DNA of 64,000 bases from IMG/VR virus record IMGVR_UViG_3300028805_000098, positions 1-64,000 of that record; one strand, given 5' to 3'. A model generated the notes under the pieces. The model was not told the origin of the DNA, ran no database searches, and saw only the letters and a program-made list of their open reading frames with translations. Below, piece by piece: positions 3,032 to 62,676 of the stretch. The stretch is from an uncultured virus (IMG/VR IMGVR_UViG_3300028805_000098). Its lineage: Duplodnaviria > Heunggongvirae > Uroviricota > Caudoviricetes. Positions within the stretch are counted from its first letter, which is position 1; every line of letters starts with the position of its first letter. Position numbers and translations under genes: made by a program.

Positions 3032-3676
3032 TTATTTGGCTGTGCGTTTTGCTGTGAAGTGGTGGATTTCGATGTTGATTGTGATGGGCATGTTAATGTT
3101 GAATACGCAGCCGTTGACACCTCCGCGATTTTTGTGGTGGTGCGTCACGTTTTTGCCGTCGGAGTTTTCCGCTTTGCGGTCGGTCTGAGATTTTTTCTCG
3201 ACCTTCTTGCCTTCGACAATCGTGGTCGCGTTCGGTGCCGCATTCGGTGTCTCGCTGCTGGGCGGAGTCGGGAGCGATTTCTTGTCGTGGTGCGTCACAT
3301 TTTTGCCGTCGGAGTTTTCCGCTTTGCGGTCGGTCTGAGATTTTTTCTCGACCTTCTTGCCTCCGACAATCGTGGTCGCGTTCGGTGCCGCACTCGGTGT
3401 CTCGCTGCTGGGCGGAGTCGGGAGCGATTTCTTGTCGTGAGACTCTTTCCAGCTGACGCTGAATTGATCGCCGCGGTTTTCGACTTTGAAACCAGCGTTT
3501 TCAAGTTCACGCTTGACCGTTCCGCGGAACTCGCCTTCGACATCAACGTACGCTGCCGTGAGGCCGCGATCGGCGAAACCCACAAGCTTGTCCATGATGC
3601 GTTCGACTTCGTTTTGCGCCTTGTCGCTGCCGTTTGCAATTTTCAACAAGTCTGCCGCCGTAAATTTCTTTGCCAT
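3032..3676 (-). CDS. Hypothetical cargo protein of cassette A, with a 50-aa internal duplication
   Basis: Strong RBS AAGGAGG; lies downstream of conserved leader copy A. Confidence 0.75.
   Translation of the reverse strand: MAKKFTAADLLKIANGSDKAQNEVERIMDKLVGFADRGLTAAYVDVEGEFRGTVKRELENAGFKVENRGDQFSVSWKESHDKKSLPTPPSSETPSAAPNATTIVGGKKVEKKSQTDRKAENSDGKNVTHHDKKSLPTPPSSETPNAAPNATTIVEGKKVEKKSQTDRKAENSDGKNVTHHHKNRGGVNGCVFNINMPITINIEIHHFTAKRTAK
3137..3440. repeat. Tandem duplication, 150-bp period, near-identical
   Basis: cggtctgagattttttctcgacc at 3181 and 3331; HDKKSLPTPPSSETP...DGKNVTH occurs twice. Confidence 0.95.
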
Positions 3677-3705
3677 AATTTATTCCTCCTTCAAAGGTAT
3701 GGCAT

Positions 3706-3800
3706 GGATCGTAGGTTTTCGCAATTTAGTACAAGAGATCCTACTAAACTCTCATACACCACGATAATATATATTCATAGGTGGGGGTAATGTCAGATTG
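3706..3800 (-). promoter_or_regulatory. Conserved promoter-leader element, copy A
   Basis: Reverse complement reads caatctgacattaccccc..ATATATTATcgtggtgtatgagagtttagtagg..tactaaattgcgaaaacctacgatcc. Confidence 0.9.
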
Positions 3801-5864: not shown

Positions 5865-5906
5865 ATTAATGAACCTCCCTTAATAATTTTGACGTGTGTC
5901 ACGTAT

Positions 5907-5915
5907 ATAATATAT
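5907..5915 (-). promoter_or_regulatory. Early-type phage promoter ATATATTAT
   Basis: Exact motif upstream of the 5864-3863 operon. Confidence 0.7.
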
Positions 5916-6008
5916 ACATAAATCTCACGCCGATTATTATATCAATTTACATTTACAAATTCGATTTGATGATGATCCACACAAATTTCTTAAGAAGGAG
6001 GAATCTTT

Positions 6009-11365: not shown

Positions 11366-11477
11366 CAATCTGACATTACCCCCTCCCATAAGTATATATT
11401 ATCGTGGTGTATGAGAGTTTAGTAGGAGTTCTCTTGTACTAAATTGCGAAAACCTACGATCCACATCTTTAAGGAGG
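11366..11477 (+). promoter_or_regulatory. Conserved promoter-leader element, copy B
   Basis: caatctgacattacccc..ATATATTAT(11394-11402)cgtggtgtatgagagtttagtaggagttctcttgtactaaattgcgaaaacctacgatccacatctttaaggagg. Confidence 0.92.
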
Positions 11478-11486
11478 ATGTTTATC

Positions 11487-11726
11487 ATGACGTATGTCGA
11501 AGAAAACAAGGTCGGCGAAGCTGTCGCGCAGATGGCGCAAACCGACGAGGCGAAAGTTTTGGCGGTAGCAAAAGCAGTCTACCCTCACTGGGCAAACGCA
11601 ATGCTTCAACCAGTCCGCGTCCCCGGCGTGTACAAAGTCTTCGCAATCGGCACAGTTCACGACGTGACAATTATGGCGCGCATCGATCAAGATGGTGGCG
11701 TCTACGTCAAACACGTCGCCTGGTAA
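11487..11726 (+). CDS. Hypothetical cargo protein of cassette B (79 aa)
   Basis: ATG correctly spaced from AAGGAGG; followed by a double hairpin and T-run. Confidence 0.7.
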   Translation: MTYVEENKVGEAVAQMAQTDEAKVLAVAKAVYPHWANAMLQPVRVPGVYKVFAIGTVHDVTIMARIDQDGGVYVKHVAW

Positions 11727-37435: not shown

Positions 37436-37511
37436 ATACACCTCCGAAAAAAGACAAGTATAAGCCTTGGCTATCGCAGCCAGGGCTTGTATTTGCGCTT
37501 TTATTTCGAAT

Positions 37512-37520
37512 ATATATTAT
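37512..37520 (+). promoter_or_regulatory. Early-type promoter ATATATTAT
   Basis: Exact motif after a terminator and upstream of the 37571 ORF. Confidence 0.7.
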
Positions 37521-37570
37521 CACCTAGTAAATAAGGATATCTCGGTTAATATCAAAGATGGAGGTGACAT

Positions 37571-43307: not shown

Positions 43308-44123
43308 GTGGAAAAGGGACCAATAACCCTTCGCAACTTCTACAAGAATCCCAGCGGCGGAAGTTCTTCAGCTTTAGCTCTCGGAGCAGTACGTTATGGA
43401 TTCGAAAGACGTTACGAAGGGGTTACAAAGAAGCTTAAAAAGAAAATACCAGTTACTATATTCCGGGAAAGTGATACGTCGTTTTACTATCATCTTCTTG
43501 TGCCGTCAGACACCAGAAGTATGGATTACGACGTAGTTATTCACTTTTTTGAAACTGTGGAAGACCCCGAGAAAACTCACATGTCTTTGAAGGATTGGCA
43601 AGTTGAATTCTTCTCAAACTGTCCCAGTTTCGTTTTCACATATGCTTACGCGTACAATAAAAACAATTTGTTGATCAGTTGGTTAAGCGATAAACTTGGA
43701 AATGAAGTTCTTGGAAATAAACCCAACGAAAAGAATCCAAATTTGTTGTTATTGTGGGATAAAAGCATATTCTACGCGATTCATCATATAATGACGCAGA
43801 CGCAATTCTCCCAGCGGTACTTTGTCAAACGAAATTCTCGTGAATTTAATCAAGAGAATTTTGCAGCAACCATTAGAACATTCGATTCGATAATGTCCGA
43901 ATTGTCTGGTGAACGTGGTAAGAAAATGGACGCGACTTCACTTACACGAAAAGTGAGGGAGACGGATTATTCTAGAACCAAGAAAGCGGTCAAAAAGAAA
44001 ATCAGCTCTGCGGTCAGAACCATTAAAGGACTTACTCACACTTCTGGCTCTAATGAACATCGAAATTCCCGCGGGAAAATCACTGGAAAACCTAAAATCG
44101 GAGGAAGTTCTCGTCGAAAATAA
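43308..44123 (+). CDS. Hypothetical protein, basic C-terminus
   Basis: 271 aa; FFSNCPSFVFTYAY motif. Confidence 0.7.
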   Translation: MEKGPITLRNFYKNPSGGSSSALALGAVRYGFERRYEGVTKKLKKKIPVTIFRESDTSFYYHLLVPSDTRSMDYDVVIHFFETVEDPEKTHMSLKDWQVEFFSNCPSFVFTYAYAYNKNNLLISWLSDKLGNEVLGNKPNEKNPNLLLLWDKSIFYAIHHIMTQTQFSQRYFVKRNSREFNQENFAATIRTFDSIMSELSGERGKKMDATSLTRKVRETDYSRTKKAVKKKISSAVRTIKGLTHTSGSNEHRNSRGKITGKPKIGGSSRRK

Positions 44124-44131
44124 ATTCGGGT

Positions 44132-44140
44132 ATATATTAT
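44132..44140 (+). promoter_or_regulatory. Early-type promoter ATATATTAT
   Basis: Exact motif 35 bp upstream of the 44176 ORF. Confidence 0.7.
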
Positions 44141-44175
44141 CCATCCGAATCTATTAAAGAAGGGGAAGTGAGAGC

Positions 44176-45753
44176 ATGAAGTTAATTAAGCGTGCTGAGC
44201 GCAAAAACAATGTAATCGGTGAAGCAATACTTATGCCGGTTCCAGAAGGTGTCATCCCGGTAGACTTGTGGAAACCTGAAGACCAAGATATCTACGCGGG
44301 ACATCAAGGCAAGGTTCTTTTCATCGCGTTTGATAAGATATTCGGACGCGACATAATTCACGAGTACAATTTCTTTGACATAAGTCTGAAGGAAGCGTAC
44401 TACAAACAGCTCGATGTGATTTCGTTGTATATCAACTATTTTCTGAAGTTCTACGACGAAGATAAAGAGCTCATAATGGCGTACATGAAGCTGAAATATA
44501 TGATTGACGCCAAACACATCACCGAATTGAAACGCGAATCGATGATAAAAGCAATCCAAAAAATCTTGTTCTCTGATTCTATGTGCGAAAAGATTAAGAG
44601 AATGAGCATGGATAATTATCGGGTCGATTTAACCACCGATGTCAAAACGAAAAAGACATCAAACAAATCTTATGCTCCGGTAATGCAATTCAATGAACAT
44701 CACGCGGAGATATTGATGAGAATTTCGGTGGCAATCAAATTTGCGATTCCCGTTATCATGCATTACATAAAGACGTTCTATAACAAAGATGAAGCGAAAT
44801 TGAATCTGTACAAATATTTCGAGCCGCTGTTTGTAAATCCAATTCTCATAGAGGATGTCAATATACTCGGCAAACTTCATCACACAATTGCGTCTCGCGT
44901 CAATAGCTATTCAAAACCGGATCGTGCGATGTACGGAAAGCATGAGGCGTTAGGTTCTTCAGTGGAAACATTCATCGAAGATTTGTTCCACAAGAATCTT
45001 ATAACCGACACCGTGTTCAGCTACCGGTTCAACGGGAACATCATCAGCTACAATTCGGTAGTTTTGAAGTATCAACTTGCATTCCATTCTAAAGAAGACT
45101 TGAAAATGGATTTCCTTGCGGTATCTACGGAAAAAGAACCCGAAGGATTGTCCGGACTTGATAAGATGGAAATGTACACGACGAAAATTGATACTTTCAT
45201 GATTCTGTTCTCTCAAGTCAATATCGCCGACACACTCGAACGCATCAAGGCGAAAATGAAGATAAAGATCACAGATAAGGAACTCGAATTCTACAAAGAG
45301 CATCACGATTTCAACAATCTTTCCAAAGAATTGGTCTTTTACTTCTTCGCGAAATGGTTCGGTGGGTTTCGTGATTTGAACTTCGTCAAAAGGGAGCAGT
45401 ACATTCAGCTCATGGTCATCATGAAGAAAATGCTGGAAGCGAACGGCAATATATACATGGACCAGTTGATAACCGCGAATGCTCATGGAAAATCGTCGGC
45501 TAGAGTCATTCGTAATTCAAAATTTCTTGAGAAGGTAACCTCGTCATCGGTATATCAGGAACTCATGGAAAAGAAATATCCCTCATTACTCGATGAAAAG
45601 AACGGGAGTCCGGTGATTACACTTCTCAGCAAGATAATCAATACGAATTGGACTTATGTCGATTATGACATGCAAGACATGCTCGATGAACCAATCGAGA
45701 TCGAGAACGAAATACTCGCGGCAGAATATCTCAAATTCGTCAACAACATTTAG
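44176..45753 (+). CDS. Hypothetical protein; candidate promoter-specificity subunit of the non-virion RNAP
   Basis: Helical 525-aa protein with an early promoter, two genes from the chaperonin (synteny argument only). Confidence 0.4.
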   Translation: MKLIKRAERKNNVIGEAILMPVPEGVIPVDLWKPEDQDIYAGHQGKVLFIAFDKIFGRDIIHEYNFFDISLKEAYYKQLDVISLYINYFLKFYDEDKELIMAYMKLKYMIDAKHITELKRESMIKAIQKILFSDSMCEKIKRMSMDNYRVDLTTDVKTKKTSNKSYAPVMQFNEHHAEILMRISVAIKFAIPVIMHYIKTFYNKDEAKLNLYKYFEPLFVNPILIEDVNILGKLHHTIASRVNSYSKPDRAMYGKHEALGSSVETFIEDLFHKNLITDTVFSYRFNGNIISYNSVVLKYQLAFHSKEDLKMDFLAVSTEKEPEGLSGLDKMEMYTTKIDTFMILFSQVNIADTLERIKAKMKIKITDKELEFYKEHHDFNNLSKELVFYFFAKWFGGFRDLNFVKREQYIQLMVIMKKMLEANGNIYMDQLITANAHGKSSARVIRNSKFLEKVTSSSVYQELMEKKYPSLLDEKNGSPVITLLSKIINTNWTYVDYDMQDMLDEPIEIENEILAAEYLKFVNNI

Positions 45754-45830
45754 GCGTTAGGGGAGCAGTGAACTACGTTTGCTGTTCCTTTTTACCCGTT
45801 TTTACACGTTTTTCTAAAGGAGGTATTATT

Positions 45831-46871
45831 ATGATTGATATAAACGAGATTAATGCTCTTGCGAAACTTAAACAAGTTCTTCTGAAGACTCCGTTTGCCA
45901 AAGAAAACAGTGCTCATACTCACGTGATAATCCGTTGCCCAATATGTGGCGACAGCCTCAAACATCAAGACAGTGTGCATTGTTACGTTAATATCGAAGG
46001 AAACAAACCAGTATCTTACTACTGTTTTTCGAGCTGTAGCGAAGGTCACTGGGTGAATTCGGATTTCTTACGTGCCGCTGGGGTAACAGATTTGAGTTTG
46101 TTAAGTGCGGTTTGGAATCATAATAAGAGATTTATGGATTCGAAAGCTCGAACTGAATCTCATTATATAATTCATGGTTCCAAAAAGAGTATCGTTCCAT
46201 TCTACAAAACTTGTAGACACATTGACAAACTTAAATACATCGAAAATCGTCTCGGTATTGAATTGACATATCAAGATTGTGTCAATCTGAAGATTATACT
46301 TTCACTCAAAGACTTTCTTGACATCAATGGTTTCGGAGTTAACCTGCCGATACGTGTAGCTCAAAAACTCGAAGATGACTATGTCGGATTTTTATCCGCT
46401 GACAGTTCTTACATCATATTCCGGGATACTAAGAAAAACGAGCATAGATACATCAATTACCCCGTATTTAAGAATAGTGGTAACTGGGGTTCTAAACTCT
46501 ACATAATTCCTGGAATGTATGACTTGATGGCAAATGACATTGATTGCAATATCACGGAGGGAATATTCGACATTCTTGGGTGTTATTATCATCTCAATAA
46601 TGCGGATAAAACAAACAAATTATACTCGGCGGTTAATGGAGCTGGATTTCTCGGCGTAATCAAACGAATACTTCATATTGGATTTATCGATAATCTCAAT
46701 TTGAATATATACGCAGATACCGATAAACCCATCGAGTTTTTCAAATCGATCAAACCGGTGAGAGAATACTGCAAGTCAATCAATCTGTTCTACAACCAAT
46801 ATCCGGGAGAAAAAGATTTGGGAACCACAAGAGACCATATCGATATTCGTCAAGCAAAACTCGTGTTATAA
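45831..46871 (+). CDS. DNA primase
   Basis: Zn finger CPICGDS..H..YCF..C; TOPRIM motifs ITEGIFD and YADTD. Confidence 0.85.
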   Translation: MIDINEINALAKLKQVLLKTPFAKENSAHTHVIIRCPICGDSLKHQDSVHCYVNIEGNKPVSYYCFSSCSEGHWVNSDFLRAAGVTDLSLLSAVWNHNKRFMDSKARTESHYIIHGSKKSIVPFYKTCRHIDKLKYIENRLGIELTYQDCVNLKIILSLKDFLDINGFGVNLPIRVAQKLEDDYVGFLSADSSYIIFRDTKKNEHRYINYPVFKNSGNWGSKLYIIPGMYDLMANDIDCNITEGIFDILGCYYHLNNADKTNKLYSAVNGAGFLGVIKRILHIGFIDNLNLNIYADTDKPIEFFKSIKPVREYCKSINLFYNQYPGEKDLGTTRDHIDIRQAKLVL

Positions 46872-46916
46872 GAGGTACCGAGAGATTCAAATCTCGGTAC
46901 CTCTAAAATTTCTGAT

Positions 46917-47573
46917 TTAGCGCGGCTCGTCGTAATTAGAACTTCCACATTTCCGATAGCGAGGGCAAGAACTACATTTAACCTTCGCAATTTTTTTGTT
47001 CTCTATTTTCGACAATTTCTCGAAATCATAACAGTTATAAGGATACTGTGAAAGCGAGACGTTGTAATATTGTGGGAGATATGTGACTTCTTTTCCAATC
47101 CATTCAGGTTTCTTTATCACAACTTTTGGTGACTCAATTTCCGTCTCTGCGATTATCAAACCATCATTATCGAGCTTGAATACATCAACCGCCCACTCGA
47201 TTCCATCTATCGTCGCTTTATAACGTTCCTTGAAAATCTTGTGTGCACAACGACTGAAAATCTCAAACGCTTCTTCAACAGGAATTTCGTACTCAAATTC
47301 ATCACGAACACAACTATCGAACACTGGTCCTTTTATGTTGAGATATGCTCTCGGAGCTCGGTAAACTTTCCCTTCGGGATCGAATTTCTTGAGTGTTTCA
47401 TATTCTTCATGACCCGTAATAGAAACTCTCACCTGAGAAATATTAGGTTCAGAAGCAGTGTCGATTTTGATGTATCCTTGTTTTGATGGATAATGAGTCC
47501 AAATTCCAGTACGCAACGATGCATCAAATTTTTCTTTGTCGACGAGGTATTTACGCTCTATCTCTTTCGCCAT
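46917..47573 (-). CDS. CYTH-domain protein
   Basis: EIERKYLV, QGY, RDEFEYEIP, KERY, IIAETE, PEWIGKEVT. Confidence 0.9.
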   Translation of the reverse strand: MAKEIERKYLVDKEKFDASLRTGIWTHYPSKQGYIKIDTASEPNISQVRVSITGHEEYETLKKFDPEGKVYRAPRAYLNIKGPVFDSCVRDEFEYEIPVEEAFEIFSRCAHKIFKERYKATIDGIEWAVDVFKLDNDGLIIAETEIESPKVVIKKPEWIGKEVTYLPQYYNVSLSQYPYNCYDFEKLSKIENKKIAKVKCSSCPRYRKCGSSNYDEPR

Positions 47574-47817
47574 AGGTTGTAACCTCCTTAATAGAATCTT
47601 TGCCAATAATTGAAAGAACTACGAAACCGTGTTTGACGCTTATCGAACCATCAGGATATTTAGTTGCATCTTCTTCGGCCTTACAAACACAATTAGTTCC
47701 TGAGCTTTTAACCATAAACAAATCACCTTTACGAAGTTCTGAGTATGTAGTTGATTCAATTCCATAAGGGCGGATTCGCTTAGTTTGAAAATCTTGTTTG
47801 CAGACAATCAATCCCAT
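47551..47817 (-). CDS. Hypothetical protein
   Basis: 88-aa coupled ORF. Confidence 0.6.
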   Translation of the reverse strand: MGLIVCKQDFQTKRIRPYGIESTTYSELRKGDLFMVKSSGTNCVCKAEEDATKYPDGSISVKHGFVVLSIIGKDSIKEVTTYGERDRA

Positions 47818-48074
47818 ACGATTTCATCCTCTACACGGTTAACTTTCTCAAAACGGAATTCTTGTGTGGCATCCGGATATTTTTCCTTGTCCACTGGAGA
47901 CACGAATTCATCTGTCGTTCTAAAGAACACCGGATGATTTTCGTACAAAGCTTCGTAAATAACATAAGTCTTTGTGTCGTTTTCGTTGGAGTTACGCACA
48001 TTAACGGCAATGACTTTATAGTCCTTACCTTTGAAATGTTTGTAGACTTCACCAACGACAGGTCTTACTCTCAT
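47808..48074 (-). CDS. DUF1653-family protein
   Basis: YKHFKGKDY, VIYEALY, F.SPVDKEKYP..QEFRF. Confidence 0.85.
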   Translation of the reverse strand: MRVRPVVGEVYKHFKGKDYKVIAVNVRNSNENDTKTYVIYEALYENHPVFFRTTDEFVSPVDKEKYPDATQEFRFEKVNRVEDEIVWD

Positions 48075-48177
48075 ATCATCACCTCCCTTTAAGCGGCTAT
48101 TTAGGCAGAGACTAGAATCTCTGCCTTAGATACGCCAGCCCTTATATATTTTACTGCACGCGGTAAATAAGTAAGGG

Positions 48178-49764
48178 TCATTCTTTGAATTTCGTCATTG
48201 AGTACAGCGTTTGAATCGTTTCATTTGTAGTTGTTCTCACGCTTTGACCAGCCATATTCAGAACATAAATTTTCGAATGCATTATACGTTCTGCTTCTTG
48301 ATTTGCTGACTGGCTAAAAACACCCTTAATTGAGACAGTATCACCGTCATAGTCACCATTCATCGCTTTCAAAAACACATTTTGGAATCTAAGAGTATCA
48401 ACGAATTGGGAAGCTATTTCATCCGGACTTAGACTCAAATCTATTACCGGATATTTCTTATACAACTTCCCATCAAGTTCAATCGGTATCGTTCTGAGTG
48501 TGCTGAGAACATTTATTCCTGTCGGAAACGTTCCCATCGTATCAGTCATTGGATAACGCGTGATATACACATGTTTATCTTCACACACATTTACCGCAGC
48601 TAAGAAGAATAAATCGGTCAATGTAAACGGACGATTGAATATTGGACTGGGTTCTCCTGTTTGCTCATATTTTTGACCCATAAACTTCAAATCGTAATGA
48701 ACTTTATCCATGTTAGTGTGCGGGATTTCGATAGTTTGAAATCTTCCGCTGAAAGAATAAATGAACGTTTCCATCATCTTACGAATCATTTCATCGTTGT
48801 AATACGACATTGGGTCTTTAAGTGGTTCAAAAGCGAGTTTGCCCTTATTCTCAATAGGATATTTCGTTCCGATAAACTCAAGTTCTCTTTGGAGAAAATT
48901 TCGAACCCATCCGAGGATAAATGGTGTAAATAACGAACAGCAGTTAGCCAACGGAACTCCTGCGTGGAAAAAGTCAACTTCGGTATCTTTATAAGAATTG
49001 GAATTGTAGTTAGGAGATGTAATAACCAATCTTGCACCATAATCAACATTTTTTCCAAGCAAAGATTTTCGAACCATTCCATTCTTCTTCTCAATCAAGT
49101 TCTTGAAATAGTCGTATATTTCGATTAGAGTCATTTGAATCATATAGCGTGTGTTATGCATTACCGGAGTAAACGAAGCATCTTGTTTTAGCATTGCAGT
49201 CAATCGAATCAATTTAGAATATATTCCGTTAACTGTATCCGCTCCAATCTTTCTGGTATCTATGTCTTGCATATTGATGTCTCGGTACATCGCAGGACAT
49301 ACTAACCACATATTGGTGAATACCTCGTTTTTCTTATGATTCTCCAACACATCGACACGATCGTTGTGTTCTGCAGATTCATTCTTCTTGTAATGGATTT
49401 TCTCCCAGTTCTTATAGAGAAAATCCATTCCTGTTTGACCTTTCTCGGGATCTTCAACCATAGTTCCGTCTTTCTGTATTACTACATTAATTCTCCCGGA
49501 ACAAATTCCATCAATCCGTCGGTCAAGTCTTCGGATATTCTTATAGATTATAGGTTGGAAATAATATCCACCTAATGAGATAAATCCAAATTTTCTGGAT
49601 CGTTCTTTGGTCGTGTTTCCAAATATTTCTGTCGAAAGCAATCCGTCATATGTGGGAGTCTTGTTTCTATCCAAGAATATCGGATTAGTGACTTCCTTAA
49701 TCATGGTCGGATTAATTTTTACGAATTTTTCAACGTCCATCAGATTCAGTTGCATAGTGTTCAC
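48178..49764 (-). CDS. rpoC: Split RNA polymerase beta-prime subunit, N-terminal/catalytic part
   Basis: GLLSTEIFG, FGFISL, RKSLLGKNVDYGARLVI, RYP, catalytic MNGDYDGD. Confidence 0.9.
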   Translation of the reverse strand: MNTMQLNLMDVEKFVKINPTMIKEVTNPIFLDRNKTPTYDGLLSTEIFGNTTKERSRKFGFISLGGYYFQPIIYKNIRRLDRRIDGICSGRINVVIQKDGTMVEDPEKGQTGMDFLYKNWEKIHYKKNESAEHNDRVDVLENHKKNEVFTNMWLVCPAMYRDINMQDIDTRKIGADTVNGIYSKLIRLTAMLKQDASFTPVMHNTRYMIQMTLIEIYDYFKNLIEKKNGMVRKSLLGKNVDYGARLVITSPNYNSNSYKDTEVDFFHAGVPLANCCSLFTPFILGWVRNFLQRELEFIGTKYPIENKGKLAFEPLKDPMSYYNDEMIRKMMETFIYSFSGRFQTIEIPHTNMDKVHYDLKFMGQKYEQTGEPSPIFNRPFTLTDLFFLAAVNVCEDKHVYITRYPMTDTMGTFPTGINVLSTLRTIPIELDGKLYKKYPVIDLSLSPDEIASQFVDTLRFQNVFLKAMNGDYDGDTVSIKGVFSQSANQEAERIMHSKIYVLNMAGQSVRTTTNETIQTLYSMTKFKE

Positions 49765-50135
49765 CTCTTCTTGAATATGATTAACACCGTGTCAGTACAG
49801 ACCGCAGATACATTCAAGCTACAATCGCCAGCAAATTTTTCATTTAAGAAACTTCCGACTTTATCAATGAAGAAATCGGACACTATGTCTTTAGTTAGTA
49901 TTACTTCAATTTCTAGTTTTGATTTTTGATTATCGAGACACCGCATATTAACGTTATCAATGAATCCATTGTGCTTTATAGCTCCATACAAAAAACTGTA
50001 TTCATCAAAGAATTCATCGAGTATCTCTTCGAATAAAGTACAACTTTCATCATTAGATTTCGTTAATTGGGCGAAAAGCTCACATCTATCCATTTCGCTC
50101 AACCCTCCACGTGACAAGGGAGGAAACTTTATCAT
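49761..50135 (-). CDS. Hypothetical protein
   Basis: 124-aa coupled ORF. Confidence 0.6.
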   Translation of the reverse strand: MIKFPPLSRGGLSEMDRCELFAQLTKSNDESCTLFEEILDEFFDEYSFLYGAIKHNGFIDNVNMRCLDNQKSKLEIEVILTKDIVSDFFIDKVGSFLNEKFAGDCSLNVSAVCTDTVLIIFKKR

Positions 50136-50380
50136 TTCTTCAATATCTGATTACGTATTTGCTCTCGTTCTTGTTTCTTGCGAATTTCTTCTTGTCGCTT
50201 AGCTTCAGCCTTATATCTTTCGATTCTAGCTTCACGCAATATTGTGATAACCCTAAACGGCAATTCCATAAGATTAGGAACGGAACCAATATCAGACTTG
50301 AATAATTCTAAAGTTTCCTCCAAGTAACGAACATAATCCTTTATTCGTTTATCATATGGCGTTGAGCCTCCAGAAAAAGG
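50132..50380 (-). CDS. Small baseplate/tail-assembly-associated ORF with no clear start (possible frameshift extension)
   Basis: Open -1 frame overlapping the end of the 543-aa gene; LMELP motif. Confidence 0.45.
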   Translation of the reverse strand, partial: PFSGGSTPYDKRIKDYVRYLEETLELFKSDIGSVPNLMELPFRVITILREARIERYKAEAKRQEEIRKKQEREQIRNQILKK

Positions 50381-51972
50381 AGCCTCTCGATACTGATAAC
50401 AACGTCTTCTGTGAATGCGTGTCCGCAAATCGGGCAAACCACAGACGAAGCTTTGAAGCCATAACGATACATGTATTCGAAGATGTTATCCGTGATGCAT
50501 TGCTGAACGACTTCGAGAATTTCTTGATTCATGCGGGCGAGAATATCAATAATCGTAACCGCATCATCAAACATGTCATAATCACCAGTTTCGTCATTCT
50601 TAAGAGCAATGCTACGAATATATCTGGCTGTCGTAATCAAACCTTCATAAACTTCGTCTTCGACATACTGTGAACTTTCAATCTTACGTTCAAAGTTTTC
50701 GATAACGTCGTAAATACTCGGGCAATAAACATCGATAATGATATCTTCGTCTTCGCCAAGTGCAAATCTGAAAGATTTGTTGATGACAGCTTCTTCGCGA
50801 GCCTTAAGTGCGTCTTCGATAGTAAATGACGCCTGATAAATACGCTCGGCTTCATCTTTGAGTTTGTCTGAAATGCGATCGACTAAGAGAATTTCCGTAT
50901 TAGAATATTCGTGGTTGAATTGATTCGGACGTGTAACGATTCTGCCGTTTTCATCACGGACTTTTCTCGTACATTCAGGATTTCCGCAATTCATAAGAAG
51001 TGTTTCTTTGTCGGGATAAGTAGCGCGTGTAAGAGCATAGATAAAGACCGGAAGATCGATTTCCGCGGTATTCTTAGCAAAATCATCAAAGCTCTTAAAT
51101 TCGCCAGTGCTACATTCGACGAGTTTCGACCAAACAAGACTTGCTTTCTGACTGAGTTTTTCAGCAGAATTCATATTTTCGCGTTCATCTATGGTAATCA
51201 AGTTAATAATTTCGATACTGGAAAGATTGCGCATTTTACCAACATAACCAGACGCCGCCGCAACGAACGGAGCGAATTGTCTACTGAAAGCTTTTTCAAT
51301 CAAAGTCTTCTGGCGAATAGCTTTCGGCTTAGTCATCTTAACGGATTTGAGTTTATGCTCATCAACTTGCACAACTTTAATCTTCTTAGATACACGAAGC
51401 TTTTCACGTTCTTCATTAGTGAATTCGACGCTACGCATACCGGTTTTATCCATAAGGATTTCGACAACTGTATTGACTGCTTTACGACCTTTGCCTTCAA
51501 TAGCCATACGTTTCTTTGCAACTTCACCCATGTCGTCAAGCATTTTCTCAGCTTCTTTGACATGTTGCTGGATGTCTGAGCCTTCTGCCATAGGACCGAC
51601 TGTCAACCCTTCCGGTTCTTTGGGTTTTTCTTCAATGATGATACCGCCACCAAGTTCTTCTTTAGTGATAGCCTTTTCGTTAGCGCGAGCTTTCGCCATC
51701 GGATCTTCGATATTAGCAATTTCAGCCGGTTTAGTAGATTCGTCAGCTTTGTGTTCACGAAGTTCTCCGATGTTGGGGATACTTGAAGTTTCAGCCTTTT
51801 CCATTTTACCTTGCTCGTCATCCCACTGGAAAATTTCTGAGTTTTCTGTAGTCGCCGGGTTAGTTCTGATTTTATCTTTATCACCAGACTTATCAGATTC
51901 GAAACTTCCAGCGGCTTGTTTTCTGAGCTTACTGATGTCCATACCATCAAGAGCTCCTTTTTTCTCTGCCAT
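50341..51972 (-). CDS. Putative baseplate hub/tail assembly chaperone
   Basis: RATYP..CGNPEC and C-terminal CPICG; next to a gp25-like gene. Confidence 0.5.
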   Translation of the reverse strand: MAEKKGALDGMDISKLRKQAAGSFESDKSGDKDKIRTNPATTENSEIFQWDDEQGKMEKAETSSIPNIGELREHKADESTKPAEIANIEDPMAKARANEKAITKEELGGGIIIEEKPKEPEGLTVGPMAEGSDIQQHVKEAEKMLDDMGEVAKKRMAIEGKGRKAVNTVVEILMDKTGMRSVEFTNEEREKLRVSKKIKVVQVDEHKLKSVKMTKPKAIRQKTLIEKAFSRQFAPFVAAASGYVGKMRNLSSIEIINLITIDERENMNSAEKLSQKASLVWSKLVECSTGEFKSFDDFAKNTAEIDLPVFIYALTRATYPDKETLLMNCGNPECTRKVRDENGRIVTRPNQFNHEYSNTEILLVDRISDKLKDEAERIYQASFTIEDALKAREEAVINKSFRFALGEDEDIIIDVYCPSIYDVIENFERKIESSQYVEDEVYEGLITTARYIRSIALKNDETGDYDMFDDAVTIIDILARMNQEILEVVQQCITDNIFEYMYRYGFKASSVVCPICGHAFTEDVVISIERLLFLEAQRHMINE

Positions 51973-51985
51973 TTACTCTTCCTCC

Positions 51986-52399
51986 TTAATTGAATTCGAC
52001 CTTTATATCGAGTAGAGAAGTTGACTTTCTAGTCATCGCTATACTGATGGTTCTTTCGGCTTGCAATTCGAAGTCGAGAATAACGTAATACTCACCTTTA
52101 TAACGAGAATTCCAGATATTCATGTCCACCATGTCTACCTGTGGAGCATATTTGCGTATTTGATCGACAATCTTCTCTTTGAGGGTTGTACCTAAAACGT
52201 AATCCATATTCTTATAACGAATCTCTCTCGAGATATTGATTCCCATTTCAGGTAACGAGGGATAATCTCCCGGACGTAAAAACAGTAATAAGAGAATTTG
52301 TCTGTATGCTGATTCCGCTTCTGTCAAAACTTTCTGTCTACCAAATCCGTCAAGGTCAAAATCAAGCTCTTTGTTATCTTTGTAAAACGAAGGCATCAT
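51986..52399 (-). CDS. Baseplate wedge protein (gp25-like)
   Basis: LLLFLRPGDYPSLPEMGI resembles the gp25 T.xGE...PxFG motif. Confidence 0.65.
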   Translation of the reverse strand: MMPSFYKDNKELDFDLDGFGRQKVLTEAESAYRQILLLLFLRPGDYPSLPEMGINISREIRYKNMDYVLGTTLKEKIVDQIRKYAPQVDMVDMNIWNSRYKGEYYVILDFELQAERTISIAMTRKSTSLLDIKVEFN

Positions 52400-52508
52400 T
52401 CATCACCTCTACTTTCTTTTAAATACTGGTGAAGAATTTAGTTTTTAGTAGCGTCAGTTATTTATCAAAGCGACAGAATGCTAAAACAAACATTGGAGGT
52501 GAATTCAT

Positions 52509-53297
52509 ATGGATTACAAGAAATGCCCTGTATGTAAAGAAAAGATTGTGGGCTCTAAGGAAAACATGATAATTCACGTAGAGAAAGAGCATGATGATCT
52601 TATACCAGAAAACCAGAATCCGGGAGAATTCATTTATTTAAGAGAACACAATGGTGAACCTCGTAAATGTATGATATGTAAGAAGCCAACAGAGTGGAAT
52701 GTCAGAACCAATAAATACAATGCGTTCTGTAGTGATGCTTGCAAACAAGAGTATGTTAAAATTGCTAAGGCTCGAATGAAGAAAGTTTATGGTAAAGAAT
52801 GTATTCTTGACAATCCCGATGTACAGAAGAAGATGTTGGCGAATCGATCTATTAGTGGACGATACATGCATTCAGATGGTGGAGTGTTGACTTATACAGG
52901 AACCTTTGAGGAAGACTTCTGCAAAATGATGGATACGTTTCTGCAATTTCCGTCTACTGATATTATTATGCCATCTCCTCACGTTTATGAATACGAGTAT
53001 GAAGGTAAGAAACATTTTTACTTTCCGGATGTATTCATTCCATCGTTAATGCTCGAAGTTGAGATTAAGGATGGTGGAGATAATCCGAACATGCACCACA
53101 AAATTCAAGACGTTGATAAAGTCAAAGAAAAACTCAAAGATGAAGCATTGATGAAACAACGTGACTTTCACTATATCAAGATTGAGAACAAAGATTATGG
53201 TGCGTTCTTTGAACTAATTGAAAGACTTGCGAATGATGATTTGACCGAAAAAGAACAACGAGAGAAAATCAAAATTACACCGGAACAAAAAGCGTGA
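52509..53297 (+). CDS. Zn-finger plus PD-(D/E)xK nuclease (TnsA/T4 gp4-like)
   Basis: CPVC..H..H, CMIC..FCSDAC, YFPDVF...EVEIK. Confidence 0.65.
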   Translation: MDYKKCPVCKEKIVGSKENMIIHVEKEHDDLIPENQNPGEFIYLREHNGEPRKCMICKKPTEWNVRTNKYNAFCSDACKQEYVKIAKARMKKVYGKECILDNPDVQKKMLANRSISGRYMHSDGGVLTYTGTFEEDFCKMMDTFLQFPSTDIIMPSPHVYEYEYEGKKHFYFPDVFIPSLMLEVEIKDGGDNPNMHHKIQDVDKVKEKLKDEALMKQRDFHYIKIENKDYGAFFELIERLANDDLTEKEQREKIKITPEQKA

Positions 53298-53368
53298 CGA
53301 ACCCCGAGAATGGAATTGAATCCATCTCGGGGTTATTTGTTCGTTTTCGTTCGTTAGAACTATTTTAG

Positions 53369-53932
53369 TCACACACCAATTTTTTCCATTGAGTAGAGAG
53401 TTGCTTTTCCATTGAAGACATTGAACTCAATGATGAGAGCTTCCGGATCCGCGTCTGAAGAAATCATGCGGCGTTGAGCAACGACAACGTGATTGACGCC
53501 TTTGGTAACTTTCTTGCCCATGTAAAGAACGGGTGTAATACCGACGCCAGTGAGTTTTTCGCCTGCAGGTTCGATAATCGAGTCGAAGTATTCCTTGACT
53601 TTATCTTCGGGATCGGTTCCTTCGACAAGCTCGTCATCTTCGATAACCTCGACGACTTTCGCGCCTTCACCATCAAACGAACCAGCCGGAATGTTAACGA
53701 TAATACCGACGATTCTTTTGATTGTCTTCAAGGTAGTACTAACTGCCTCTGCGACCAGCAAATAGTTAGTACCATTCACAATCTGATCCGCAACGAGCCA
53801 AATCGGGGTAAATGTCGACCCAAACAAAATGGGCTTTGCCGAGGCGAGAGCCTGAGGAAGTGAAGTTGCAGGTTGGTTGATAATGTTCCAACCACCAAGT
53901 TTCCCACCAAGGGTGATACCACCAAATTTCAT
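53369..53932 (-). CDS. Protein with two cystatin-like repeats
   Basis: GGW, QIVNGTNY and second copy KVTKGVNH; late promoter at 53974-53985. Confidence 0.55.
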   Translation of the reverse strand: MKFGGITLGGKLGGWNIINQPATSLPQALASAKPILFGSTFTPIWLVADQIVNGTNYLLVAEAVSTTLKTIKRIVGIIVNIPAGSFDGEGAKVVEVIEDDELVEGTDPEDKVKEYFDSIIEPAGEKLTGVGITPVLYMGKKVTKGVNHVVVAQRRMISSDADPEALIIEFNVFNGKATLYSMEKIGV

Positions 53933-53991
53933 GATGTTTTGCCTCCTTATATGATTCATCATTAGAATCGGATTACCTTCTTGTTAAGAGA

Positions 53992-54096
53992 GGTTTAATT
54001 TCAATCCGACATCACCCCCACCCACATTTATATATTATATACGCGTAGAAGAGTTAAGTAGGCAGCTCACTACTAAGATGAAAAAACCTACGATCC
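53992..54096 (+). promoter_or_regulatory. Conserved promoter-leader element, copy C (variant family)
   Basis: caatccgacatcaccccc..ATATATTAT..gagttaagtagg..ctactaa..gaaaaaacctacgatcc. Confidence 0.9.
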
Positions 54097-54119
54097 TCGC
54101 CTCGTAAGGAGATGGTAGA

Positions 54120-54605
54120 GTGATTAAGTACAGCGACCTCGACGTGAGAGAAAGGGCGCTTCTTGACTCTCTCAAGGACAAGATGGTCAAGAAAGTGCTC
54201 CCATACGATCAACGTTATGCGAAAAACTGGGAGTTTTTCGAGACGGTCCATTCGGATTATCTCGATGATTTCCAAGCGCTCATCTCAGATGAGATGGACG
54301 TGAAGGCGTTCGTTTCGACGTATCATCTCGACTATTACAGCTCGTCGAAGCTCGACGAAATGTACGATGAGTACTACGAGATCTTTCCGCCGGAATCAGG
54401 CCATGATGACATCATCCGCCGCAACCAGATCACATTTATTGAGAACTGGGATTGGGACGATGAGATCAAGTTGCCCGATAAGTGGGACTGCGATGTCTAC
54501 GATGCGATTGTAGAAAGCGTCAAAGACAAAGCGGTATCAACGATCCGCGACGAAAATTGGGAACGTTTCCGCGAAACCGCCCGCAAAATGGGATGGTTCT
54601 TCTAA
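54120..54605 (+). CDS. Hypothetical acidic cargo protein of cassette C
   Basis: GTG start after AAGGAG; followed by a terminator. Confidence 0.75.
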   Translation: MIKYSDLDVRERALLDSLKDKMVKKVLPYDQRYAKNWEFFETVHSDYLDDFQALISDEMDVKAFVSTYHLDYYSSSKLDEMYDEYYEIFPPESGHDDIIRRNQITFIENWDWDDEIKLPDKWDCDVYDAIVESVKDKAVSTIRDENWERFRETARKMGWFF

Positions 54606-54678
54606 CTGGTCACGTCACGCTCACCGGTCACGCTCATTATACGGGCGTGATTTTTTTTTGTTTTCCAACCTCGCAATA

Positions 54679-54856
54679 CCCGAGAAGAAGTATGGGGTAA
54701 AGCAAAAGCATTTAGTAGAGAACCAAAGATTTATCTCCACTGGACTGCTGGTTGGTACGATAATGTTCCGACCACCAAGTGTAATACCACCAAATTTCAT
54801 GATGTTTGCCTCCTTATATGATTCATCATCGGAATCGAATTACCTTTTTTAAGAAG
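54679..54856. pseudogene. Chimeric duplication relic (amidase 5' fragment joined to the start region of the cystatin-like gene)
   Basis: 54679-54764 matches 55610-55695; 54760-54856 matches 53880-53991, with substitutions and deletions. Confidence 0.9.
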
Positions 54857-54961
54857 GGTTTAATTTCAATCCGACATCACCCCCACCCACATTTATATAT
54901 TATATACGCGTAGAAGAGTTAAGTAGGCAGCTCACTACTAAGATGAAAAAACCTACGATCC
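54857..54961 (+). promoter_or_regulatory. Conserved promoter-leader element, copy D
   Basis: Identical to 53992-54096 over 105 bp. Confidence 0.92.
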
Positions 54962-54979
54962 CTTAAGGAGGGATTTGGA

Positions 54980-55468
54980 ATGACCACAGACGATTTCGGA
55001 TACGAGCTGGGTCAAATACTCAACTTTCAATGCACTGAACCAGAGGATTTCGATGGTGAGTGCATCGGATCCCGGTGCCCGAACTTCCATGAGTGCCATA
55101 GTCATCCGCATTACTACATCAGCACGGCATATTACAAAAAGTATGCTGTTGTGAGCGATGATTGGCACGAGGTTGGCATCTTTGATGTTGACATCGTAAC
55201 ACCGAAACAGGCGGCCGAAATAATTTGCAATGGAGCAACGAATCCTACCCGGATCGAACGCGCCAACCGCATCAGTGTCGGAAGCCAATGGTTCAAAACG
55301 CTCGATGATGAAATAGAATGCGAGTATGTCGACATCAACGGTATTCGCTACTATTTTGACGATCAGTATTGCTTCGGCGGCTACATCAACTGGGCTCGCG
55401 CCATAATCAAGGAAAACAATCTTTCGTTTGAAGATGTCGTTTATCTCAATGAACTCTTGGAGCAATAA
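54980..55468 (+). CDS. Hypothetical cargo protein of cassette D (Cys/His cluster)
   Basis: RBS AAGGAGG; C..C..C..CHSHPH; followed by a terminator. Confidence 0.75.
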   Translation: MTTDDFGYELGQILNFQCTEPEDFDGECIGSRCPNFHECHSHPHYYISTAYYKKYAVVSDDWHEVGIFDVDIVTPKQAAEIICNGATNPTRIERANRISVGSQWFKTLDDEIECEYVDINGIRYYFDDQYCFGGYINWARAIIKENNLSFEDVVYLNELLEQ

Positions 55469-55563
55469 CGCTCCGCTGCGGTCTCGCTCATATGGGCGAG
55501 ATTTTTTTTTCATTTCTAACCTCTTAATATTCAAGACAATCTCATAAAGGTAGGTGAACGAAA

Positions 55564-56166
55564 ATGCGTGAAGTTACACTTAAAGAAATCTATCAACTCG
55601 CTTCTGCTGCCCGAGAAGAAGTTTGGGATAAAGCAAAAGCACTTGGTAGAGAACCAAAGATTTATCTCCACTGGACTGCTGGTTGGTACGATAATAAGTC
55701 TGACGACTACCATATCAATATCGATAAGAATGGCAAATATTATGCCAGTACAGATAATTTTGCTGATGTTATCGCCGGAACATACAAACGTAACAGTGGA
55801 GCTATCAACATCACAATATGTTGTGCGGTATATGCGGATACCAAAGACTTAGGTCCGAATCCTCCAACCGCTGCACAGATTGAAAGTATGGCTTTGGCTG
55901 TTTGTGCAGTAGCTGAAGGATTATGGCTCACAATCAATCCAGGTCATGTAATGACACATGGAGAAGCTGCAGATAATGAAGATGGTTTGTGGTGTCATGA
56001 ACAATATGGACCGAAATCAACTTGTGAACGCTGGGATTTGGAATATCTTGAAACTTCAGAATCCCCAAAGTTTAATCCTCATGCAATAGACGGTTCTCGC
56101 GGTGGAGACGTTCTCAGAGGAAAAGCTCTTTGGTATCTCCCAGAATTCAGAAAGAATTACAAATAA
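55564..56166 (+). CDS. N-acetylmuramoyl-L-alanine amidase (Amidase_2-like endolysin)
   Basis: IYLHWTAG, YHINID, PTAAQIESM, MTHGE; late promoter at 55535-55546. Confidence 0.8.
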   Translation: MREVTLKEIYQLASAAREEVWDKAKALGREPKIYLHWTAGWYDNKSDDYHINIDKNGKYYASTDNFADVIAGTYKRNSGAINITICCAVYADTKDLGPNPPTAAQIESMALAVCAVAEGLWLTINPGHVMTHGEAADNEDGLWCHEQYGPKSTCERWDLEYLETSESPKFNPHAIDGSRGGDVLRGKALWYLPEFRKNYK

Positions 56167-56238
56167 ACTCAAAATGAGGAAGAGATTCGAATCTCTTCCT
56201 CAACTTACCCTTAAACTAATTCAAAGGAGGTAACGCTT

Positions 56239-58524: not shown

Positions 58525-58581
58525 CAAACTACAAAAAGCGTGACAAAGCCAGAACCTACAAGGTTCTGGCTTATTGTCCGC

Positions 58582-58730
58582 AAAAAAAACGACTCCCAGG
58601 AAGATAGGCCTAGCCGCCAATTCTGTTACGCGGCGACTTCGAGGCGGGTTAATCCGAAGTCTACTATATAAGCCGAGTACAACTTAGGCGTTTGTCACCA
58701 ATAACCTATCTTCCCTTAAAGTGGAGCTAT
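58582..58730 (-). ncRNA. Candidate structured non-coding RNA (multi-stem junction)
   Basis: Closing stem 58599-58608 / 58705-58714 encloses three hairpins; U8 run at the 3' end; promoter-like motif at 58760-58771. Confidence 0.5.
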
Positions 58731-58788
58731 TGCCCGCACATTAGTATTATAGATGCATCTAATGATATGTTGACACGATATAATTTTT

Positions 58789-58901
58789 CAATCTGACATC
58801 GCCCACCCTCCTAAGTATATATTATCGTGGTGTATGAGAGTTTAGTAGGAGTTCTCTTGTACTAAATTGACGAAAACCTACGATCCACATCTTTAAGGAG
58901 G
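58789..58901 (+). promoter_or_regulatory. Conserved promoter-leader element, copy E
   Basis: Near-identical to copy B from taagtatatattat through aaggaggatgttt. Confidence 0.92.
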
Positions 58902-58910
58902 ATGTTTGAA

Positions 58911-59477
58911 ATGAAAAACGCTCTGGTAAATTCGATCGTCTCCGTTATTAACGTCATTTGGGGTCTCACAGGAGGGGCAATTCTGTTCGGCGCGATGTAC
59001 GTTATCGCGTACTTCAAAGTCAAAAACGGAACTGCGTCGTTGTACACCGATGTGAGATACGCGGATACTGGAAAGAAATTGACCATATGGTCATTCTTGA
59101 AAAGGTTCGCCGTCCAGATGGAAGCAGTCCCGTTAGTAACAGATCAGGGGCTGGTTGCTTGCGTTCACGGAGGATTCGCAGAATTCATTATCGAAGGCAA
59201 GAAAGAAAATCATTTCTCGATGGCGAACAAATTCGACAAGGGAGAGTACACACTCATCTCTTGTTGTAATGGTAGCCATCAAGACTTCCATTTCAACGGG
59301 CGCAGTTTCAAACGCGACAAAAACACTATCAGTTTATATGAAACAATACTACTTCCATATAACAATGGAAAGCTTGTGTGTTGGGCTGACAAGACAATAC
59401 GTCTTTACACCTGCGCGCAATCGGTGCAGTATTGGAAATATATTCCGAAGGTTATCTGCGCAAAAGGCTGGAAATGA
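58911..59477 (+). CDS. Hypothetical membrane-anchored cargo protein of cassette E
   Basis: N-terminal hydrophobic segment; ATG spaced from the RBS. Confidence 0.72.
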   Translation: MKNALVNSIVSVINVIWGLTGGAILFGAMYVIAYFKVKNGTASLYTDVRYADTGKKLTIWSFLKRFAVQMEAVPLVTDQGLVACVHGGFAEFIIEGKKENHFSMANKFDKGEYTLISCCNGSHQDFHFNGRSFKRDKNTISLYETILLPYNNGKLVCWADKTIRLYTCAQSVQYWKYIPKVICAKGWK

Positions 59478-59634
59478 TTCACGAAAGAATCTGTGTCGTA
59501 AATCGGCACAGACACCGCACACATTTGCGGCACAGATTCTTTTTCCCTCAAGGAGATATTTTTTACCTCCCACAACAAGAAGCGTGACAAAGCCAGAACC
59601 TTAATAGGTTCTGGCTTTTTCTCCTTTTTACGTT

Positions 59635-59742
59635 CCGACATTACCCTCTCCCATAAGTATATATTATCGTGGTGTATAGGAGTTTAGTAGGAGTTCTCTT
59701 GTACTAAATTGCGAAAACCTACGATCCACATCTTTAAGGAGG
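59635..59742 (+). promoter_or_regulatory. Conserved promoter-leader element, copy F
   Basis: Near-identical to copies B and E. Confidence 0.92.
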
Positions 59743-59751
59743 ATGTTTGAA

Positions 59752-60399: not shown

Positions 60400-60495
60400 A
60401 ACAATTCAGCCACGCAAAACCGCGTGGTTTTTTTTTCTCCGAATTTCACCTATTTTTACCCCTCGCGACAAAGCACTAAAAAGAGGTGATAAACG

Positions 60496-61896: not shown

Positions 61897-61906
61897 AATC
61901 GAAAAT

Positions 61907-61915
61907 ATATATTAT
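61907..61915 (+). promoter_or_regulatory. Early-type promoter ATATATTAT
   Basis: Exact motif in intergenic DNA. Confidence 0.65.
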
Positions 61916-62135: not shown

Positions 62136-62151
62136 TCGTTTTAATCCCAAA

Positions 62152-62670: not shown

Positions 62671-62676
62671 CCTTTC

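Follow-up and report, generated by a model that had tools for sequence, protein, structure and literature searches.

In the jumbo phages AR9, phiKZ and phiR1-37, AT-rich motifs of about 10 nt centred near position −10 serve as early promoters, according to the accessible text of a review (PMC7598289). The AR9 paper, in its accessible part, gives AAATATATATTAT-(6N)-G+1 as the consensus of the early promoters used by the virion RNA polymerase (RNAP), places the starts of phiKZ and phiR1-37 likewise 6 nt downstream of their motifs, and mentions an uncharacterised motif inside early 5′ untranslated regions (UTRs) (PMC5312081). For phiKZ, 5′ UTRs are mostly 31–40 nt long and no common leader is described in the accessible text of the corresponding study (PMC8244752). 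T4-like phages, as far as the accessible parts of two studies report, carry conserved promoter/stem-loop cassettes of about 100 bp, the PeSLs, which stand before ORFans, recombine and shuffle genes (PMC2839356; PMC4122927). Here we describe a repeated promoter and leader element of an uncultured virus that is related to jumbo-phage early promoters, to PeSL-like cassettes and to leaders occluding the Shine-Dalgarno (SD) sequence, and that lies outside all named RNA families. It was analyzed in a stretch of 64,000 nucleotides (the window; positions 1–64000 of the 74,584-base record IMGVR_UViG_3300028805_000098 in IMG/VR, CheckV completeness 30%), where positions 11403–11486 probably comprise the last 6 nt of an early promoter followed by the 5′ untranslated leader of a small early gene. 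The element may act as a constitutive cis stabiliser and translation-damping leader on a recombining early-promoter cassette, a reading that we give an even chance of being right.

The record contains seven copies of the leader, six in the window (A–F; Table 1) and the seventh at 67,940–68,010. The leader is about 78 nt long with a conserved segment of 52–55 nt, and promoter, upstream element and leader together span about 130 bp. As in AR9, a TATATATTAT core is followed by 6 nt and then G, and the motif is over-represented upstream of co-oriented genes: TATATATTAT-6N-R occurs at 10 exact sites in the window against 0.12 expected, all of them intergenic and co-oriented with the next open reading frame (ORF), as read from the ORF lists and the sequence, and the base at the predicted start is G at nine sites and A at one. 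By analogy with AR9, the virion RNAP would recognise TATATATTAT of copy B and start at G11409. Since the AR9 rule places the start there, the CGTGGT spacer is probably not part of the RNA; the interval of the initial annotation, which began at 11403, covers the leader but probably opens 6 nt upstream of its first base. The spacer is complementary to the CUACG of a conserved box described below, and a fold begun at 11403 pairs the two. Promoter and predicted start, the 5′-terminal helix, the invariant box and the recombining nature of the cassette had all escaped the initial annotation.

What distinguishes this phage from AR9 and phiKZ is that a subset of its early promoters carries an extra upstream element together with the conserved leader segment. 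The 74.6-kb record has 12 exact motif sites, seven of the leader class (upstream element plus leader) and five plain; the plain promoters have short unrelated leaders, AT-rich upstream DNA and no GACAT/C-tract element, whereas GACAT and the C-tract of the upstream element are kept in 6/6 window copies and are absent from the four plain TATATATTAT promoters of the window. In the close relative G002, two motif sites are of the leader class and nine are plain. Because plain sites carry the same motif without the leader, the leader lies outside the core promoter. In the first 50 kb of AR9, by comparison, four purine-start sites upstream of a gene have short, unrelated leaders, unlike those described here. 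A sigma70 scan of 53300–62200 lists none of the four cassette promoters in that region. By eye, a weak sigma-A-like −35 sequence (CTGACA/CCGACA) 17 bp from TATATA can be read in the upstream element (11370–11387 and its equivalents). In G002, 18-bp inverted repeats at 51527 (−) and 14919 (−) (loci L384–L386; −25 and −26 kcal/mol) extend from 7–8 nt before the predicted early start into the leader, so that the full hairpin would form only in read-through transcripts; they may be an insulating or terminating design, or the start may lie further upstream.

When promoter plus box was searched as an exact block, IMG/VR yielded only three other contigs, the near-identical G001 and the relatives G002 and G003, which with the record form the window clade; the same search of JGI metagenomes found contigs of 54,254, 79,081 and 81,294 bases, presumably the same three records. 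The clade has only three leader sequence families, represented by eight sequences in our alignment A2. In the alignments of the window copies and of A2, substitutions between families are clustered and leave invariant blocks. The window copies are paralogous repeats (71–93% gapless identity among B, E and F; 74% mean column identity over all six), and for this reason the recurrence of a helix from copy to copy reflects common descent and is not independent support. The diverged relative G005 (76% capsid identity; a record of 195 kb that carries terminal repeats) has seven diverged leaders behind a promoter type of its own.

The best-conserved part of the leader is a single-stranded box, AAAACCUACGAUCC, which is exact in 7/7 copies of the record, with 0 occurrences of a control pattern, and is unpaired in 10/12 minimum free energy (MFE) folds. 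The G005 leaders share the order of hairpins, A-rich stretch, box and SD, and they share the box itself as (Y)CUACG(A/U)UCC: it reads CUACG(A/U)UCC in five of the seven, CUAUGUUCC in one and is diverged in one. Elsewhere in the window the box is absent from both strands, even with one mismatch allowed. An antisense partner for the box was rejected, as none was found in the window with up to one mismatch, and so was a late promoter, as the box stands upstream of no other gene of the window. An upstream ORF through the box was likewise rejected: an AUG or UUG frame exists in C, D, family III and B, but a 1-nt insertion breaks it in E, G and L011, and the frame is absent from most G005 leaders, as checked by eye.

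Between the predicted start and the box the leader can fold in more than one way. The initial annotation had noted a 5′ GAGAG/GAG segment complementary to a loop CUCUU/CUC, and this complementarity is real but belongs to a longer helix of 9 bp, GUAUGAGAG/CUCUUGUAC (alpha), which would open at the first transcribed base; its position at the 5′ end depends on the predicted start, and it competes with a second hairpin (beta). Alpha has a predicted energy of −8.5 kcal/mol in the region of copy B and of −8.5 to −9.1 kcal/mol across family I, is the MFE fold in A-type copies and is kept in family II as 4+5 bp. In the clade 87.3% of its cells are paired; one of nine pairs is changed on both sides (U.G to G-C), and there are three one-sided changes, including a GA/AG swap opposite two U's in copy F. 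In G005 a 5′-proximal hairpin is predicted in 7/7 leaders with mostly different helix sequences, e.g., GAGUACC/GGUACUC, GUAUCAU/AUGAUAC, AAUCCGA/UCGGAUU, GAGGC/GCCUC and GAGUGUCC/GGAUGCUC, followed by a second hairpin GGCGC(U)...(A)GCGCC in all leaders except m5, which folds differently. In an unfitted MAFFT alignment of these leaders 86.6% of cells are paired, as compared to 28–48% with slid partners, three pairs are changed on both sides, and the fold z-scores range from −1.2 to −4.3. Hairpins of 9–10 bp from +1 are also predicted in two plain early leaders of relatives (G004 at 21240 and G002 at 25440); in G004, which is a 25-kb fragment (75% capsid identity), strong hairpins of unrelated sequence open the leaders behind the two TATATATTAT promoters. 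Stem-loops at the 5′ terminus are known to stabilise mRNAs, as in the E. coli ompA leader and the B. subtilis 5′ stabilisers. The leader would resemble these in that the predicted hairpin lies at or within a few nt of the predicted first base and that, in G005 and the window clade, its sequence is free while pairing is kept. It differs in that stabilisation is here a prediction and that in family I the competing hairpin beta, which is slightly more stable, leaves 7–9 nt unpaired at the 5′ end.

Beta is the UUUAGUA/UACUAAA hairpin on which the initial annotation had centred, and it is present as described: TTTAGTA-N(10-12)-TACTAAA occurs four times in the window (3725-, 11418, 58841 and 59683) against 0.00 expected in shuffled sequences, with AGTAG/CTACT in its place in copies C and D. 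Its MFE is −11.5 kcal/mol. However, selection on this hairpin, as the initial annotation proposed, found no support: although 85.7% of its cells are paired, 0/10 pairs show a two-sided change, 500/500 shuffles do as well, and families II and III have a broken lower stem. The further claim that pairing is retained across divergent sequence accordingly fails for beta, holds weakly for alpha and holds best for the hairpin over the SD. The competing GUAGG/CCUAC pairing (gamma) is also there; it joins GUAGG at 11422–11426 to the CCUAC of the box and excludes beta, and the 5′ GUA(G) can pair with the box too. GTAGG and CCTAC are invariant in 6/6 window copies and in 8/8 sequences of A2, and because of this invariance gamma cannot be tested for covariation within the clade. 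GUAGG is missing upstream of the box in 7/7 G005 leaders, and gamma therefore does not account for the conservation of the box. Alternative folds, when forced, lie within 0–3 kcal/mol of each other in every family, and in A-type copies a 2-nt loop deletion flips the MFE fold to alpha. Such near-degenerate energies would permit switching but would fit an ill-defined fold equally well.

The third structural part of the leader is a hairpin that would occlude the SD. Hairpins of this kind are known from the T4 lysozyme early transcript and from the fourU and ROSE thermometers. In copy B the predicted probability that the SD is unpaired is 0.07, and it ranges from 0.05 to 0.27 over the six window cassettes, as compared to a median of 0.31 (quartiles 0.13–0.51) for 26 other genes of the window. 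The hairpin had been described for B, E, F and D as built from different sequences; it is predicted in these four and also in A, and the helix is rebuilt from different sequences in B/E/F, in D, in A/L009, in family III and in G005. In A/L009 the start codon is buried along with the SD. The 3′ bases of the box (AUCC/UUCC) and the nucleotides following them resemble the anti-SD of 16S rRNA, and AUCC of the box is complementary to GGAU of the SD region. Common to this leader, as predicted, and the known SD-occluding hairpins is that the SD, and sometimes the start codon, lies in a local hairpin with a 5′ arm resembling the anti-SD; here, in contrast, the hairpins are modest, no opening trigger was identified, and one design stands before many unrelated genes. 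In the predictions the SD hairpin shows no visible coupling to the alternative folds upstream.

The genes that follow the leader are indeed unrelated, as the initial annotation had it. None of the cargos has a PHROG or Pfam match, and among 14 cargo proteins of the window clade and G005 no pair reaches a BLASTP E-value of 1e-3 or lower. Terminator-like hairpins that are not conserved among cassettes follow cargos C, D, E and F. A terminator on the opposite strand was rejected as non-canonical, its T-run lying 6 nt from the stem. The leaders are mosaics, with all four combinations of loop type (short or long) and CG/ACG variant present and with upstream spacer types recombined, and the G002 orthologue of cargo B carries an A-type promoter spacer and loop. 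As judged from the accessible parts of the PeSL studies, the cassettes share several features with PeSLs: in both cases a conserved composite block of about 100–130 bp is repeated intergenically directly upstream of ORFans, terminators accompany promoters, copies recombine and cargo is swapped between close relatives. The same sources also show the differences, since PeSL promoters are sigma70-like whereas the promoters described here are of the jumbo-phage virion-RNAP type, the PeSL stem-loop is a terminator at or upstream of the promoter whereas here the hairpins lie inside the 5′ UTR and have no U-tract, and a conserved single-stranded box and an SD hairpin belong to the block only here.

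Following this, we propose that the virion RNAP would start transcription at G11409, producing a message whose 5′ domain would fold as the 9-bp hairpin from the first transcribed base or, alternatively, as beta, and that the 5′ hairpin would protect the end of the message from 5′-end-dependent decay. The 3′ end of the box with the bases following it would act as a cis anti-Shine-Dalgarno by pairing with the SD, and the resulting hairpin would damp translation initiation equally for whichever gene follows. The cassette of about 130 bp, comprising promoter, upstream element and leader, would be placed ahead of ORFan genes, and recombination between copies would spread it and keep the copies alike.

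A number of observations weigh against this stabiliser and damping model. The start site is taken from other phages and not from reads, and the two metatranscriptome runs containing the phage, available as contigs only, show within 44001–64000 no cover on cassettes C–F and no usable ends there. At eight plain promoters of the clade, the strongest inverted repeat nearby opens 4–8 nt upstream of the predicted start, two of these repeats being 18 bp long, so that either the start lies elsewhere or the repeats have roles at the level of DNA or in read-through transcripts. The fold z-scores of the leader from +1 to the end of the box are weak (−1.55 for B, −2.16 for F, −0.76 for A, −0.47 for C/D and +0.07 for family III) and not clearly better than shuffles, and the covariation score of alpha is matched by 27/500 shuffles. 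With only three families in the clade and exchange of segments between copies, the pair statistics rest on very few independent events. Likewise, the SD comparison comprises only about four independent hairpin designs; copy C (0.27) comes close to the median of the controls (0.31), and copy F (0.147) barely exceeds their lower quartile (0.1345). Moreover, damping the translation of early genes brings no obvious advantage, and the model leaves the conserved CUACG half of the box unexplained.

Because of that unexplained half, the main rival is a trans-acting factor: the box might serve as an operator for an RNA-binding protein that binds it or an endoribonuclease that cuts it, from phage or host, and this factor would turn the unrelated early genes off or on as one regulon. 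T4 offers precedents in RegA, a translational repressor, and RegB, an endoribonuclease, which act on early-gene regulons. The likeness, a short sequence near the ribosome-binding site that is common to many unrelated early mRNAs, is one of function alone: the motif is not related, and the factor here is hypothetical. The box is the only leader segment conserved from the window clade to G005 while the surrounding helices changed sequence, it is mostly unpaired and, within the window, confined to the leaders, it precedes 14 unrelated cargos, and in G005 its CUACG half has no convincing cis partner. On the other hand, no candidate for the factor emerged, a cis anti-SD could account for the 3′ half of the box, short complements of CUAC (GUA/GUAG) near every 5′ end make cis pairing possible, and the box occurs in only two clades; we think a trans factor unlikely, though far from negligible. 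The DNA itself might also be what is conserved, the block of about 130 bp being a homology patch for shuffling or an initially transcribed or upstream part of promoter recognition or regulation, with RNA helices as an incidental product. Mosaic copies, promoter–leader types swapped between orthologous cargos of close relatives, the tandem duplication of C/D, contigs of a DNA run that break at the repeats and inverted repeats straddling the predicted start in plain promoters of relatives would all fit this explanation, as would the PeSLs, which are recombining promoter/stem-loop cassettes of about 100 bp before ORFans in the accessible text of PMC2839356. It is nevertheless improbable: the clustered substitutions between families leave invariant blocks, the box survives in G005 where its surroundings cannot be aligned by the leader covariance model R1, the 5′ helices of G005 change sequence yet keep pairing, which points to a single-stranded nucleic acid, and five plain promoters of the record have the same motif without the leader, which speaks against the leader as a part of core promoter recognition.

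A switch was among the roles that the initial annotation had proposed. In a conformational switch, alpha plus gamma, a pseudoknot-like arrangement, would alternate with beta accompanied by pairing of the 5′ end with the box, and selection between the two by a ligand, by a protein or by co-transcriptional kinetics would change access to the SD. Two GUA(G) and two (C)UAC elements can indeed swap partners, and both the narrow energy range of the forced folds and the effect of the 2-nt loop deletion would fit a switch. Yet unstructured leaders also give near-degenerate energies, beta lacks covariation, gamma is invariant in the clade and its GUAGG is missing in G005, the z-scores are weak, no coupling of the SD hairpin to the alternative folds is visible, and there is neither a conserved pocket-like multi-helix core nor an Rfam riboswitch or ribozyme match even at E ≤ 5. 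The claim of a translational switch is hence unsupported, and we regard a switch as decidedly improbable. The more ambitious proposal of a new class of cis-regulatory RNA, namely a bistable 5′ UTR (alpha plus gamma pseudoknot versus beta) with a box read by a phage factor that controls stability and translation of an ORFan early regulon, the operator travelling with a mobile promoter cassette, is improbable as well. A further possibility draws on the antitermination-type hairpin and box leaders lambda nut boxB/boxA and HK022 put: a hairpin followed by a conserved single-stranded box of 13–14 nt directly behind the promoter, at several transcription units, would suit processive antitermination or a polymerase-modifying leader. 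Here, each cassette consists of a single short gene with its own strong terminator close behind, after which the next promoter follows, so antitermination would have no target, and no Rfam match was found, so that this explanation is hardly credible.

Table 1. Coordinates in the window of the promoter, leader and cargo of copy B, of the other leader copies and of the plain early promoters.
Feature	Position	Strand	Details
Upstream promoter element	11370..11387	+	CTGACATTACCCCCTCCC; from the alignment of six window copies; leader-class promoters only
Early promoter core, virion-RNA-polymerase type	11393..11402	+	TATATATTAT; equals core of AR9 consensus
Spacer between motif and predicted start	11403..11408	+	CGTGGT, 6 nt; AR9 rule; probably untranscribed
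Predicted transcription start G+1, copy B	11409	+	From AR9 rule; G invariant in all leader copies
Alpha, predicted 5′-terminal hairpin	11409..11439	+	GUAUGAGAG (11409–11417) with CUCUUGUAC (11431–11439), 9 bp; excludes beta
Beta, predicted UUUAGUA/UACUAAA hairpin	11416..11445	+	AGUUUAGUA (11416–11424) with UACUAAAUU (11437–11445), plus apical GAG/CUU extension
Single-stranded box	11449..11462	+	AAAACCUACGAUCC; after unpaired A-rich stretch; unpaired in MFE fold
Predicted SD-occluding hairpin	11463..11481	+	ACAUCUUU / GAGGAUGU, loop AAG; SD AAGGAGG at 11471–11477
Cargo of copy B, 79 aa, ORFan	11487..11726	+	ATG 11487; no PHROG or Pfam match
Copy A	3681..3790	−	TATATATTAT 3764–3773, predicted start 3757, box 3706–3719, cargo 3032–3676
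Copy C (family II)	54006..54119	+	Motif 54029–54038, predicted start 54045, box 54083–54096, GTG 54120
Copy D (family II)	54871..54979	+	Motif 54894–54903, predicted start 54910, box 54948–54961, ATG 54980
Copy E	58793..58910	+	Motif 58816–58825, predicted start 58832, box 58873–58886, ATG 58911
Copy F	59635..59751	+	Motif 59658–59667, predicted start 59674, box 59714–59727, ATG 59752
Terminator directly upstream of copy F	59589–59618		
Plain TATATATTAT-6N-purine sites	5900–5916 (−), 37511–37527, 44131–44147, 61906–61922		Upstream of genes; short unrelated leaders

The source of the cassettes is, judging by its proteins, a fragment of an AR9/PBS1-like jumbo phage, because its RNAP subunit is closest in tblastn to those of Bacillus phage BpSp, Listeria phage LPJP1, Bacillus phage Goe21 and Staphylococcus phage S6 (about 36% identity) and because of the PHROG matches in the window, which comprise a phiKZ-type RNAP subunit (phrog_2986, E = 4.8e-96), tail sheath, major head protein, large terminase, DNA polymerase, a GroEL-like chaperonin and an NrdD-like anaerobic ribonucleotide reductase. 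By PHROG and tblastn the phage encodes subunits of multisubunit RNAPs of the phiKZ/AR9 type, one set of which would be packaged into the virion. The DNA sequencing runs that contain the phage are labelled sheep gut metagenome.

Searches for further leaders pointed to a narrow distribution. GenBank phages gave no match to the 130-nt block in blastn and none to 6 kb in megablast. Capsid homologues led to 22 further viral contigs and one contig of a metagenome-assembled genome, and a protein search found capsid relatives at 55–95% identity on ENA, Logan and NCBI contigs of up to 221 kb (P0001–P0022); on 21 capsid relatives the covariance model R1 gave no full match, the best E-value being 0.0039. 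Patterns of box plus SD, run on these 21 and three further records, matched outside the clade only in coding-like sequence, and locus searches with single proteins returned the near-identical contig only. A looser leader pattern matched at least 115 loci, and among those listed only two were leaders (L022 and L083), both on contigs already known; a G005-type pattern matched at least 116 loci, six of which passed the filter, and among the matches listed only the G005 locus was a leader. In line with the initial annotation, which recognised no known riboswitch or ribozyme, Rfam 15 gave 0 matches at the gathering score over the whole window and, at E ≤ 5, none on the leader in the forward sense, other hits falling on terminator hairpins and flanks. 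The lone hit at this threshold that touches a leader is Thr_leader on the opposite strand at 59583–59697 (22 bits against a gathering score of 55, E 0.23), which is centred on the terminator upstream of copy F and extends 24 nt into the leader of that copy. A full-text literature search for stem-loop leaders in early 5′ UTRs of jumbo phages gave no paper.

Further repeats and breakpoints were observed around the cassettes. The C/D region is an 865-bp tandem duplication (53879–54096 and 54759–54961; 54679–54764 and 55610–55695) that includes the start of a minus-strand gene and a divergent promoter region, and between C and D stands a fragment that copies the 5′ end of a lysin-like gene (95% identical). 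In two RNA-library runs from one sample, contigs begin at 55557 and 55558, preceded by sequencing-adapter letters; these ends lie 6–7 nt upstream of the ATG of the lysin-like gene at 55564 and may represent a transcript or processing end. Contigs of a DNA run break exactly at the leader repeats (54021/54067, 54886/54932, 58819/58885 and 59683/59726), a usual effect of assembly at repeats. Other repeats are a 150-bp tandem repeat (97% identical) inside cargo gene A at 3129–3428 and repeats of 264–267 bp in the first large ORF at 1–567. A non-coding stretch of 186 nt (58575–58760), which separates the NrdD terminator from the cassette E promoter, has a multibranch fold closed by a 10-bp helix, GGAAGAUAGG/CCUAUCUUCC, with a z-score of only −1.34; no Rfam match lies inside it, the nearest hits ending at 58579.

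Post-transcriptional control is almost unexplored in jumbo phages with RNA polymerases of their own. The module described here would give unrelated ORFans the same start site, the same protection of the 5′ end and the same ribosome-binding context, and it recombines among its copies; this would account for the way in which newly acquired genes are connected to the early programme of such phages. It would also carry the PeSL idea beyond T4-like phages and their host-type promoters to another phage lineage and another polymerase, now including the 5′ UTR. Moreover, the invariant box offers a concrete way to look for an RNA-binding regulator or nuclease, should there be one.

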